Origin: a virus
Direction: 5' to 3' (one strand)
Length of the DNA stretch: 64,000 bases
Virus record (IMG/VR): IMGVR_UViG_3300036900_000256
Location: 1-64,000 of that record
Shown here one piece after another: positions 45,126 to 51,177 of this stretch. Position 1 is the first letter of the stretch, and each line of letters opens with the position of its first letter. A model generated the notes under the pieces. That model saw nothing but the letters and a program-made list of their open reading frames with translations, made no database searches and was not told the origin of the DNA. A program made the position numbers and the translations under genes.

Positions 45126-45371
45126 TTACCCCTGCGGCGTGTTGGGCACCTCGGGCATCACCCGGGCCAGCACGGTCAGTTTCGACGCCTCGACCCCATG
45201 TCCACACTGCATGCTCAACACCAGGGTCACCCACCACCCGCCCTCCGGGCAGGGTCGCCGCGGGTGCCTGTCTCCTTCGATGACGACCGTGTCAGGGCAT
45301 TTCAGCAGGTGGCAGTCGGGTTCATGCTCCCGCAGGAAGGCGAACGCATACGCGCGGGCTTCCTCAGACAT
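45126..45371 (-). CDS. Hypothetical protein
   Basis: GGAGGAG RBS; overlaps upstream gene. Confidence 0.55.
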   Translation of the reverse strand: MSEEARAYAFAFLREHEPDCHLLKCPDTVVIEGDRHPRRPCPEGGWWVTLVLSMQCGHGVEASKLTVLARVMPEVPNTPQG

Positions 45372-45663
45372 CGCGCTCCTCCGTGAAAGTAGGCCAGGTT
45401 CGGTTGCGGTTGTCCCTGTGCCACTCCCGGATCTGCTTCGCGATTCCCCCGGACACGAACACCACGTTGCGCACCCGGTGCGTCGGGATCTTCCCCGCGC
45501 GTGCCTGCTGGTGGAGCGCGGACATGGTGAGTCCAAGCTGATCAGCGAGGTCCCGGAGCGCTACGTCGGGCAGGTGTTCGTTCTGCATGGTCGTGGAGTA
45601 TTCCCCGGGGTACGCGCCACGCGGCGGAGCCGGTGGATCTTGTAGCGCGATTGGGGGTGGCAT
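45364..45663 (-). CDS. HTH_17/excisionase-like DNA-binding protein divergent from the transfer operon
   Basis: LRDLADQLGLTMSALHQQARAGKIPTHRVRNVVFV; TACGAT -10 box just upstream. Confidence 0.65.
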   Translation of the reverse strand: MPPPIALQDPPAPPRGAYPGEYSTTMQNEHLPDVALRDLADQLGLTMSALHQQARAGKIPTHRVRNVVFVSGGIAKQIREWHRDNRNRTWPTFTEERDV

Positions 45664-45751
45664 GGCAGTAATCGTAACCCATCTACTACACTCTCGTGTA
45701 GGATCAGGACCTTAGCGCATCGTGACCGTTTACTCACGAGGAGACACGCCC

Positions 45752-46168
45752 ATGACCAGCGGAACCAAGACCACCGACGCGCACCTCGTCACCGACATCG
45801 TCATGCTCGCCACCCACAACAACACCCAACACGTGCTACTCATCCAACGCGGATGGCCACTCCCCGGCGGGTACGTCGACCAAGGCGAGACGTTCGAACA
45901 GGCCGCACGCCGTGAACTCGCCGAGGAAACCGGGCTCGTCGCTGCCGACCTCACCCGGATCGGAATCTACGACGAGCCGGACCGCGACCCGCGCGGCCGT
46001 GTGGTCAGCGTCGCCTACGTCGCCCAACTCGACCACCTGCCTGCCGTGGTCGCCGGGGACGACGCCCGTGTGGCCCGCTGGGTCCCAGTCGCCCAGCTCC
46101 GCGGGCTCGACCTGGCGTTCGACCACGAACAGGTCCTGGTCGATGGGCTCCTCACCCCCCGCTCCTGA
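45752..46168 (+). CDS. Nudix hydrolase (pSAM2 Pif-like context)
   Basis: Nudix box GGYVDQGETFEQAARRELAEETG, RDPRGRVVSVAY, AGDDA, LAFDH. Confidence 0.92.
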   Translation: MTSGTKTTDAHLVTDIVMLATHNNTQHVLLIQRGWPLPGGYVDQGETFEQAARRELAEETGLVAADLTRIGIYDEPDRDPRGRVVSVAYVAQLDHLPAVVAGDDARVARWVPVAQLRGLDLAFDHEQVLVDGLLTPRS

Positions 46169-49540: not shown

Positions 49541-49564
49541 TCAACTCTGAGTCGGTGGTCGGCG

Positions 49565-49785
49565 CCGTGACAACCCGCAGACCTGTCACGGGCGCCGAGA
49601 CGGACACAGAGTCCCTGCTCAGGGCCGTGACACCGCCGTGACACCGCCCGTGACAGCCGACGTGACAGCCCGTGAACGGCCGTGACACCGCCGTGAATCG
49701 GCCCGTGACAGCCGTGACAACCCCGTGAATCCCGTGACAGCCGCCCAGTCACGGCCGTGACCAGCAGAAAGGCAACCCCGTGACC
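49565..49785 (+). repeat. clt-like array of 8-bp repeats CCGTGACA (TraB recognition sequence-like)
   Basis: Exact copies at 49565, 49625, 49636, 49648, 49680, 49703, 49712, 49732 plus variants at 49660, 49670, 49691, 49723, 49755, 49778; 9-12 bp spacing in the core; immediately after traB. Confidence 0.85.
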
Positions 49786-51177
49786 ACCGCCCCCACCGCG
49801 CCCGAAGGCGGCTGGACGAGCCGACGCGCCCGCCACCGGGCGGAGCGCGCGCACGCCATGAACCTCCACACCGACGCCCGCAAGAAGCGCGCCGCCCAGA
49901 CCGCGACCGAACGCGCCGCCGGGCACGCCGAGGACCCGATGAGCTGGCCGCTGCGGATCCTCGCCACCGCGGTCGCCCTGGTCGTACTCGCCGTCGCGGT
50001 CGTGATCGGCGTCGTCGTCATCGGCGCCCAGATCGGGTTCTACGAGACCAACCTCACCGTCAAGACCATCAGCTTCGCCGCGCTCGGCATCGACACCCCG
50101 CTCGACCTGCCGACCTTCACCCCGCTCGCGACCGAAGGCGTCGTGTGGGCGACCACCCTGCTCGCGGTGGTGATGGTGCTGCTCAACCGGACCGCGACCC
50201 TGTGGACGCGGTCGATGTGGTTTTTCGCGTCGATCGCCGCGTTCGTGAACACGTGGCACGCGGTATTCGAGGAAAAGGATCTGTTCGGCGGTGTGCTCCG
50301 GGGCGGGCTTTCCCTCGCGGGTCCTTTCCTGGTGCATCTGTTCATTTTGTGGTGCCGTCATCTGCGGACCGGCCGGACGCTGGCGCAGGCGCGTATCGAC
50401 ACGGCTGTCCGCTGGGACGGAATCCGTTCGGTCCTATTGGCGCTGGGGCTTCTGCTCGGCCGTCATGTGGCGCACCCCGTCATCGCGGCCCGCGCGTTGG
50501 GTTACCGGCTCGGCGTGGGCAACTGGTCCTACACCGACGCGTGGGCGGCCGCGTCGGTCGGTTACCGGCGTCGCGTGCAGGCCCGGCTCGACGGGGCGGA
50601 CACCAACCGGCCCGGTCGCCTCCGGAGTGCGCGACCGGAGGCGACCGGCAGCGGCGACACCGACGACCGACCGACCGACCCGGCCGCCGTGGTCGAGGAC
50701 CCGCCTCCGCCGGTCGGCCTGCGCCCGGCGTTCACCGACGAGGAGGCCGAGTTGCTGGTCGCCCGGCTCATGGACCCGACCTTGACGGTCGCCGCGTTCG
50801 ATGACCAGCCCGAACCGGCGACCGGAACAGGCGACCGAGAGGCGACCGAGAGGCGACCGGACGCGACCGACGCAGCGACCGGACCGGCGACCGGCACGCG
50901 ACCGAAGGCGACCGAACGCACGACCGACACCAGGGCGGGAGGCGACCGGTCGCGACCGGTCGGCCGCGACCGGAGGCGACCGACGACACGACCGGACACG
51001 ACCGGAGTCGACGTCTCGGACCTACTCCCGGTCGCCCGCGAGGTGGCGACCGAACTGGGCGACCGGCTCAGTCGGGACGCGCTCTTGGAGGGGCTGCGGT
51101 TGCGGGGCCTGTCGGTCGGTGGTCTGCGTCGGGCCGCGATCTACAACGCCGTGAAGGACGAACGGGGAAAGGCATGA
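49780..51177 (+). CDS. Spd-like multi-pass membrane protein (DUF2637-like N-terminus, C-terminal HTH-like domain)
   Basis: Four or more TM helices, low-complexity linker, DLLPVAREVA..LSRDAL..LR..G.SVG; follows traB/clt. Confidence 0.6.
   Translation: MTTAPTAPEGGWTSRRARHRAERAHAMNLHTDARKKRAAQTATERAAGHAEDPMSWPLRILATAVALVVLAVAVVIGVVVIGAQIGFYETNLTVKTISFAALGIDTPLDLPTFTPLATEGVVWATTLLAVVMVLLNRTATLWTRSMWFFASIAAFVNTWHAVFEEKDLFGGVLRGGLSLAGPFLVHLFILWCRHLRTGRTLAQARIDTAVRWDGIRSVLLALGLLLGRHVAHPVIAARALGYRLGVGNWSYTDAWAAASVGYRRRVQARLDGADTNRPGRLRSARPEATGSGDTDDRPTDPAAVVEDPPPPVGLRPAFTDEEAELLVARLMDPTLTVAAFDDQPEPATGTGDREATERRPDATDAATGPATGTRPKATERTTDTRAGGDRSRPVGRDRRRPTTRPDTTGVDVSDLLPVAREVATELGDRLSRDALLEGLRLRGLSVGGLRRAAIYNAVKDERGKA
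50818..50983 (+). repeat. Intragenic GCGACCG(G/A) repeat array
   Basis: 13 copies, mostly 10-14 bp apart and in different reading frames. Confidence 0.75.

Follow-up and report, generated by a model that had tools for sequence, protein, structure and literature searches.

A predicted TraB-type DNA transfer module in the genome of a temperate siphovirus with a probable Pseudonocardiaceae host

The stretch of DNA described here (the window) covers bases 1-64,000 of one IMG/VR virus record of 74,452 bp, IMGVR_UViG_3300036900_000256, which is the genome of a temperate siphovirus. In the window, at 45.1-51.3 kb and between the late (lysis) operon and a leftward early operon, lies a group of genes resembling the double-stranded DNA (dsDNA) transfer modules of actinomycete plasmids. 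Its core is a traB gene for an FtsK-like motor, followed by a dense repeat array that is a candidate clt locus. Gene calling based on GC content at third codon positions (GC3) gave 111 genes on the contig. An earlier account of the window made from its letters alone (the sequence-only reading) had listed a helix-turn-helix (HTH) regulator, a Nudix gene, small open reading frames (ORFs), a TraA-like gene, a TraB, an array, an Spd-like gene and a bidirectional terminator, and all of these parts can be found. They are set out below by coordinates and strand, with two genes outside the module at the end; G1, G3, L110 and G415 are related elements described further on.

45126-45371, minus strand: g061, small Cys-rich ORF, from gene calling
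45364-45588, minus strand: g062, small HTH-like protein and candidate regulator, oriented divergently to the Nudix gene; its HTH_17 match is weak (E 0.13)
45722-46168, plus strand: Nudix hydrolase in the Pif position; PF00293, E 5e-23
46369-46599, plus strand: g064, small HTH-like ORF with a homologue in G415 (38%)
46681-46815, plus strand: g065, 44-aa acidic ORF, a weak call
46912-47193, plus strand: g066, partner ORF 5' of traA, conserved in G1, G3 and L110 (37-47%)
47190-47552, plus strand: TraA-like protein of 120 aa; NCBIfam plasmid_TraA, E 1.2e-10, below cutoff
47570-49540, plus strand: TraB, 656 aa, with N-terminal helices, FtsK-like motor, acidic linker and C-terminal winged helix, called from NCBIfam, fold and motifs
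49565-49785, plus strand: Array A, predicted clt, with 14 same-strand CCGTGAnn units and 2 inverted copies
49780-51177, plus strand: g069, SpdB-like membrane protein with four transmembrane helices, a disordered linker and a C-terminal three-helix HTH
50631-51066, plus strand: Array B, 17 same-strand GCGACCGR units in the region encoding the g069 linker
51204-51240, no strand: hairpin, likely bidirectional terminator, between the convergent genes g069 and g070
44595-45095, minus strand: g060, secreted lipoprotein (lipobox LLTGC) that adjoins the module on its left, where the late region ends; 59% in G415
8919-9335, plus strand: g017, GntR-family regulator; PF00392, E 7e-19

The product of traB had been described as an intact FtsK-like protein with a GMTGSGKT motif and a winged helix, a description that holds up well. 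It matches NCBIfam plasmid_TraB (NF041214) at E 3e-110, with 369.5 bits over 620 residues, and tblastn finds it homologous to TraB of pJV1 and TraA of pWTY27 (27-30% identity, E about 1e-42). Walker A (GMTGSGKT) occupies residues 276-283, and the Walker motifs (GMTGSGKT, IHVEEG) occur in each of the five phage copies and do not vary among 24 aligned members of the clade to which these belong. An AlphaFold model (pLDDT 70.5) superposes on the FtsK motor domains 2iut and 6t8b (Foldseek E 7e-15, TM score 0.62-0.65), and its C-terminal domain (residues 586-649) is composed of three helices and a beta wing (pLDDT 81-91). Searching PDB sequences with the TraB profile returned nothing; the matches came from the fold search. 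The most likely start of the gene is 47570, and an alternative start at 47285 was rejected. Judged from its sequence, the TraB module looks functional.

Directly 3' of traB lies the dense array that had been noted there. Array A contains nine exact copies of CCGTGACA in 49565-49739 (about 175 bp), compared with two in the other 63.8 kb, and the window total of 11 was reached in 1 of 100 shuffles. With degenerate units included, 14 same-strand CCGTGAnn copies (mostly CCGTGAC/A; CCGTGAMN) can be counted in 221 bp at a spacing of 9-12 bp, together with two inverted copies. An array occupies the same position, directly 3' of traB, in five of five elements, and its motif appears to follow the predicted recognition helix of the neighbouring TraB: the four TraBs with the helix RSPAWVYK(Q/S)L sit beside arrays of GGGGTGA(C/G/A)A, and the TraB of this phage, with the helix MTAAWLYKLL, sits beside CCGTGACA. 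This conserved position and the covariation of motif and helix support Array A as the best clt candidate and the predicted TraB binding site. Mapped systems offer a useful comparison. The TraB winged helix is known to read 8-bp repeats (PMC4170104), and the clt of pWTY27, which was mapped experimentally, spans 16 bp inside the tra gene and 159 bp 3' of it and contains TGACACC four times, footprinted by the Tra protein (PMC3583192). This TGACACC repeat is contained in the CCGTGACACC units of Array A. The clt of pJV1 has nine 9-bp repeats.

The next gene, g069, had been read as an Spd-like membrane gene, and its four helices and its placement in a language-model atlas, both for the ORF at 49780-51177, agree with that reading. 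The four hydrophobic helices are followed by a linker that is long and disordered, then by a C-terminal domain of three helices modelled with confidence, and in the atlas the protein falls beside the DUF2637 and HTH_SpdB_C/SpdB_N clusters (PF27079 / PF27080) with a score of 0.88-0.92. The local copies of Pfam and NCBIfam gave no hidden Markov model match, and on the modelled features the label "Spd-like" is a reasonable one. Within the linker coding region lies a second array, absent from the sequence-only reading. Array B consists of 17 same-strand GCGACCGR units at a spacing of 10-14 bp, of which 8, 4 and 5 copies fall in the three codon phases. A peptide repeat was considered as its source and rejected, given the 10-14 bp period and the use of all three phases; Array B is therefore a DNA-level feature. 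The GCGACCGR motif is also found in the g069 homologue of G1, and G2, G3 and L110 carry ACCCGAC arrays in their different downstream gene. Because the motif differs with the downstream gene across the elements, Array B tracks that gene and not the TraB helix. Our best guess is that Array B is a site for the C-terminal HTH of the SpdB-like protein, by analogy with RepAM of pMEA300, which binds 8-bp repeats lying in the sequence that codes for it (PMC2440964).

The remaining genes of the module are smaller. By its Nudix box and position, the Nudix protein is a putative match to the Pif-type Nudix of conjugal immunity in pSAM2; it is 46% identical to pZL12.76c of the plasmid-phage ZL12 and 45-52% identical to Nudix genes on Streptomyces plasmids. 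A TraA-like gene is indeed present, and the 333-aa ORF at 46551-47552 first proposed for it was discarded since GC3 analysis splits that ORF; the gene is the 120-aa ORF at 47190-47552, whose place ahead of traB is conserved throughout the phage clade and also at several Streptomyces loci. The proposed divergent HTH regulator exists as a small minus-strand gene, g062, although its assignment to an HTH family depends on a weak match. No convincing operator palindrome was seen in 45560-46400, and a sigma-70 promoter scan returned nothing. Another gene deserves mention here: g017, 36 kb from traB, belongs to the family of the TraR/KorA/KorSA repressors and is a possible remote regulator of the module. 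In G1, G3 and L110 a GntR gene adjoins the module and is divergent from it.

The module is delimited on both sides. On the right, the hairpin at about 51204-51240 has a 13-bp G+C stem (z -2.9) between convergent genes, as expected of the bidirectional terminator that had been proposed, but a consensus terminator scan did not call it; the sole call was on the minus strand at 49771-49788. On the left, the last late gene is followed by a hairpin that has a U-tract. With a hairpin on each flank, the unit is therefore likely to be transcriptionally insulated. It does not lie directly after the lysis cassette, as had been stated, since a GT2 gene and two minus-strand genes (the lipoprotein gene and the small Cys-rich ORF) intervene. 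The statement that no integrase, att site or rep gene accompanies it stands for the module itself, in that no int, rep, tRNA or flanking direct repeat bounds it and none that would mark an actinomycete integrative and conjugative element (AICE) was found. Elsewhere on the element, integrase-type genes are present at 5.6 and 72.5 kb.

The rest of the contig is that of a phage. Profile searches identify, in the left arm, an RNA ligase, a polynucleotide kinase, an Xer-like tyrosine recombinase, an endonuclease VII-like gene, a glycosyltransferase and a collagen-like fibre gene; in the late operon, terL (phrog_38), portal and head genes, a 1229-aa tape measure, minor tail proteins, a GH25 endolysin and a holin-like gene with four transmembrane helices; in the leftward early operon, WhiB, RuvC, RecT and RecE; and at the right end (71.4-73.7 kb), a repressor, a metalloprotease and a tyrosine integrase. 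No recognisable host genes are found on the 74.4-kb contig, and neither Rep nor ParAB was detected among about 60 genes scanned, a part of the gene set. The ends of the contig (1-40 and 74413-74452) form an imperfect direct repeat of 40 bp (38/40 identical), in which lies the hairpin found after the last gene; it may reflect a circularly closed assembly across a single-nucleotide polymorphism bubble, or a real terminal repeat. The tyrosine recombinase of the left arm (5595-6674, plus strand; phrog_1, E 6e-26) is the second on the element, sits amid phage genes far from the repressor-integrase pair and could be a dimer resolvase of an episomal form. When 25 kb of the late region was compared with phages by megablast, nothing matched. 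The host is probably a filamentous actinomycete of the Pseudonocardiaceae rather than a Streptomyces.

That the module belongs to this phage genome, and is not a separately bounded AICE, is supported by an independent assembly, namely the Logan contigs (k=31) of the one soil metagenome run that contains this sequence and is probably where it comes from. Two contigs, 35-49201 (depth 15.9) and 49172-74423 (depth 16.7), cover the element with 0 differences and a 30-bp overlap, and each spans one junction between module and phage. The only k=31 assembly break in 40000-58000 falls at 49150-49200, in an acidic low-complexity repeat (GACGAGGAGGACGAG) of the TraB linker, and no variant that skips the module is supported in this assembly. 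Read joints that might have been taken for deletion variants were rejected, all their sides being at most 24 bases and from other organisms. Because no int, Rep, tRNA or repeat bounds the module, and because its junctions are crossed at equal depth, neither an inserted AICE nor a chimera is likely.

Relatives of this TraB place it in a phage setting. A search of IMG/VR for the locus with single proteins returned nothing, and an alignment-based search was needed. The TraBs nearest to it, at 54-74% identity, are those of metagenomes, Lentzea cavernae and Saccharothrix violaceirubra, and identity to the TraBs of Streptomyces is about 30%; the label "Streptomyces-type" given to the module is thus apt for the mechanism, but not for its nearest relatives. 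Four further members of the clade can be read in context:

G1: 59.7-kb circular contig with a 127-bp terminal repeat, CheckV 100%; terL phrog_9, portal, capsid, tape measure, endolysin, integrase
G2: 79-kb provirus, its sequence identical to a segment of a 7.35-Mb chromosome that is probably from Saccharothrix violaceirubra; terL phrog_9, portal, capsid, tape measure, endolysin
G3: prophage in a genome that is probably from Lentzea cavernae, TraB module and lysis cassette convergent; integrase, endolysin, tape measure, capsid, portal, terL phrog_2
L110: located at one end of a metagenome contig of 231 kb; homologues of phage early genes lie 5' of the module

All four lie in tailed-phage genomes, complete or near-complete and with differing terminase families. 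The module order that is conserved is divergent GntR gene, small ORFs, Nudix, g066, TraA, TraB, array and membrane gene. With this phage, the members whose context is known are in phages in five of five cases. In a FastTree phylogeny of 101 TraBs, the five phage copies group with the 12 metagenome homologues in a single clade (support 100), which is nested within the TraBs of loci on chromosomes and short contigs. Among 401 genomes sampled from the family of the Actinokineospora reference (presumably Pseudonocardiaceae), two encode a TraB of at least 55% identity, both in prophages. A traB of this clade accompanies terL in G1, G2 and G3; of 10 further IMG/VR records with Streptomyces-type TraBs, five also have a terminase, although a tandem AICE and prophage is possible in those five. 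No att sites could be located for the integrated siblings in stretches of 100 kb, and a "tRNA-SeC" call lies inside the integrase ORF and may be spurious.

Further insight comes from G415, an 80.6-kb provirus and the nearest relative of the phage backbone (terL 78%, portal 63%, RecE 62%, WhiB 59%), which has no member of this TraB clade. In the equivalent slot, between the lipoprotein gene and whiB, and on the opposite strand, it encodes a 695-aa protein (L116:6601-8688, plus strand) whose N-terminal helices are hydrophobic and which has a P-loop and, at its C-terminus, a MarR-like winged helix, followed by three membrane proteins, one of them g069-like. This protein aligns with the TraB clade profile (hhalign 94.8%, E 5e-8, 373 columns); no repeat array was seen beside it. 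The comparison argues that the lineage keeps a translocase module in this slot while its type is swapped and, since a translocase is kept despite the swap, that selection may act on its function.

Taken together, these observations make it probable that this temperate siphovirus has its own actinomycete-type dsDNA transfer unit, composed of a Pif-like Nudix, a TraA-like protein, TraB, a clt (Array A) and an SpdB-like protein. Expression of the module, DNA binding, transfer and immunity are in each case predictions drawn from sequence. In a lysogen, or after excision, membrane-anchored TraB hexamers would bind the CCGTGACA repeats through the C-terminal winged helix and pump the phage genome, circular and in the form of dsDNA, into a hypha in contact. 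The SpdB-like protein would help phage DNA past septa, the phage integrase and replication genes would establish the genome in the recipient, and the Nudix protein would limit transfer into hyphae that already have the element. The phage could then spread both in virions and by conjugation, as the sequence-only reading had proposed, and would gain a second route requiring neither receptor nor virion. A wider reading, which we put forward as a tentative possibility, is that temperate phages of filamentous actinomycetes keep a dedicated, swappable slot for a single-motor dsDNA conjugation module, that mating is routine for them as a second, receptor-free route, and that in this clade two cis sites are used: Array A, read by the TraB winged helix, and Array B, read by the SpdB-like HTH for mycelial spread.

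Several points weigh against a working transfer unit of this kind. The TraB score is below the equivalog cutoff of 800 bits and the clade is divergent, so that the protein is filed as a TraB-family homologue and not as an equivalog; TraA is likewise below its NCBIfam equivalog cutoff. The N-terminus of TraB has four or five long helices in residues 3-153, which are poorly modelled (pLDDT 35-53) and weakly hydrophobic for membrane segments, with no segment above 1.6 on the Kyte-Doolittle scale. The ratio of nonsynonymous to synonymous substitution rates (dN/dS), 0.42-0.67, indicates moderate constraint only and is of little use, because GC3 bias depresses dS and inflates the value. The substrate, at 74 kb, would be several times larger than the matched TraB plasmids (about 10-15 kb), and Array B could be the real clt, or a second one. 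With TraB as the query, tblastn at E 1e-5 matched none of 50,697 phage records, so that no cultured phage among them has a relative of this protein, and no RNA runs with this sequence were found. Finally, part of the genome may be missing from the contig, since its record is listed as linear in IMG/VR and CheckV puts its completeness at 72%.

These points must be considered alongside other explanations of the locus. The TraB/SpdB-like module could move phage DNA within a single mycelium, across septa or into spores, and not to another individual. Plasmid Spd proteins act in intramycelial spread (PMC2440964), FtsK-family motors work at septa and the hosts of the sibling prophages are filamentous; moreover, Array B covaries with the Spd-like gene, whose C-terminal HTH fits a spread-specific cis site. 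In plasmids, however, the same TraB also drives intermycelial transfer, so that the roles are not exclusive, and the Pif-like Nudix suggests control of transfer between individuals; a purely intramycelial role is rather unlikely in our judgement. Alternatively, the module could be a passenger, either a remnant of an AICE or plasmid or an insertion in an accessory slot, which is neutral, decaying or mobilises other DNA only. This would suit a slot between the lipoprotein gene and whiB that varies relative to G415, a module found on unrelated phage backbones like a mobile cassette, and a TraB below the equivalog cutoff. Against it stand the intact genes, the conserved Walker motifs and the retention of both arrays in five diverged elements; the module has no int, rep or att of its own, its clade is found only in phage contexts where the context is known, and the swapped G415 module also has a TraB-like translocase, which suggests selection for function. 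We consider a passenger improbable.

The element could instead be mainly a phage-plasmid like pZL12, living as an episome with TraB as a trait of the plasmid lifestyle and its integrase-type genes serving as resolvases. The second Xer-like recombinase at 5595-6674, the absence of recognisable host genes from a contig whose ends overlap by 40 bp (38/40), the circular closure of G1 and the precedents of pZL12 and the Nonomuraea element PhiNon1 all agree with this. Yet the genes scanned include no Rep or ParAB, the right end has a repressor-metalloprotease-integrase trio as in integrating phages, and the siblings G2 and G3 are chromosomally integrated, and we rate an essentially episomal lifestyle as quite improbable. 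As for a chimera in which a fragment of an AICE or plasmid was wrongly joined to a phage contig, the sequence does come from a metagenome assembly and the Logan assembly does break once inside traB at the low-complexity acidic repeat. The 30-bp overlap, equal depth, zero differences and crossing of one junction by each Logan contig, as well as the same linkage in four other genomes, two of them from isolates, leave an assembly error very improbable indeed.

A phage with a conjugation module is not new as a concept. The Streptomyces plasmid-phages pZL12 and pFP4 are described as able to conjugate and to form infective particles (PMC4170104, PMC3583192). The pZL12 / phage ZL12 element (GQ919031) goes back to Zhong et al. 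2010, J Bacteriol 192:3747, as cited in PMC3583192, where its transfer locus is also cited, and pFP4 to Chen et al. 2012, as cited in PMC4170104. In the ZL12 record, the genes beside the structural genes include GntR, small ORFs, Nudix, a membrane protein, a 766-aa protein and an FtsK-like protein. ZL12 and the phage described here both combine a tailed-phage genome with an actinomycete dsDNA transfer locus on one replicon and beside structural genes, and share a module order of divergent regulator, small ORFs, Nudix, membrane protein and FtsK-like Tra. The Tra protein of pZL12 (71c), however, is distant (25% identity over the ATPase core, pairwise E 2e-4), and pZL12 is reportedly, from the 2010 paper, an autonomous 90-kb plasmid with repA. 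Unlike it, the present phage has a repressor-integrase module, siblings that are integrated, a TraA/TraB pair of the classical kind and explicit repeat arrays, and its likely host family differs.

Smaller elements are also related in part. As in pSVH1, pJV1 (NC_001759) and pWTY27 (NC_013667), a homologous TraB is preceded by a TraA-like gene and short direct repeats lie next to the tra gene, but the carrier here is a 74-kb phage and not a 10-15 kb plasmid, the TraB belongs to a separate clade found in phages, the repeat copies are more numerous (14), and the downstream gene has a second array. With the AICEs pSAM2, SLP1 and pMEA300 (PMC2440964) the phage shares an integrase, a regulator, a Nudix, a single Tra translocase, Spd-type membrane genes and prophage-like maintenance, and the 8-bp repeats bound by RepAM of pMEA300, which lie in the RepAM coding region, are a precedent for Array B. 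AICEs, in contrast, are 9-24 kb long, with a Rep and without virion genes; this element is 74 kb long and has all of the head, tail and lysis genes, and the genes scanned yielded no AICE-type Rep. What appears new is a distinct TraB clade that, where its context is known, is seen only in integrating tailed phages with a probable Pseudonocardiaceae host, together with the apparent covariation of motif and helix, a second array independent of reading frame and the apparently swappable slot.

Horizontal transfer by phages and by conjugative elements is usually taken to follow separate routes. In large surveys, phage-plasmids have been searched for conjugation with profiles for relaxases and type IV secretion (PMC7969092), and such profiles are blind to a one-protein TraB system. 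If integrating tailed phages of mycelial actinomycetes do mate, receptors would cease to limit their host range and spread, and DNA could move without lysis; TraB-driven mobilisation of the chromosome could be linked to prophages, and the line between AICE and prophage would blur. The covariation of motif and helix also offers a natural specificity series for the recognition of DNA by TraB.

Some other features of these genomes are worth recording. The lipoprotein g060 is a candidate superinfection-exclusion or lysis-related protein. To the right of the module, a WhiB-family gene (52319-52573, minus strand; PF02467, E 1e-22) is conserved in G1 (62%) and G415 (59%), and WhiB-family genes also lie near TraB in many Streptomyces and Kitasatospora loci. 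At 38000-41000, over the end of a 915-aa minor tail gene and the following 329-aa gene, GC falls to 0.57-0.63, probably marking a receptor-binding region that was exchanged recently. G1 has nine copies of AAGGGTTC (L074:12877-13180) inside a 412-aa coding sequence, and G415 has a related array of seven GACCCTTC at about 75.75 kb (reverse-complement coordinates); both may be iterons in a replication gene. The RNA ligase and polynucleotide kinase of the left arm (2502-4600, plus strand; phrog_562, phrog_505) are 68% and 63% identical to the pair in the Lentzea prophage G3.

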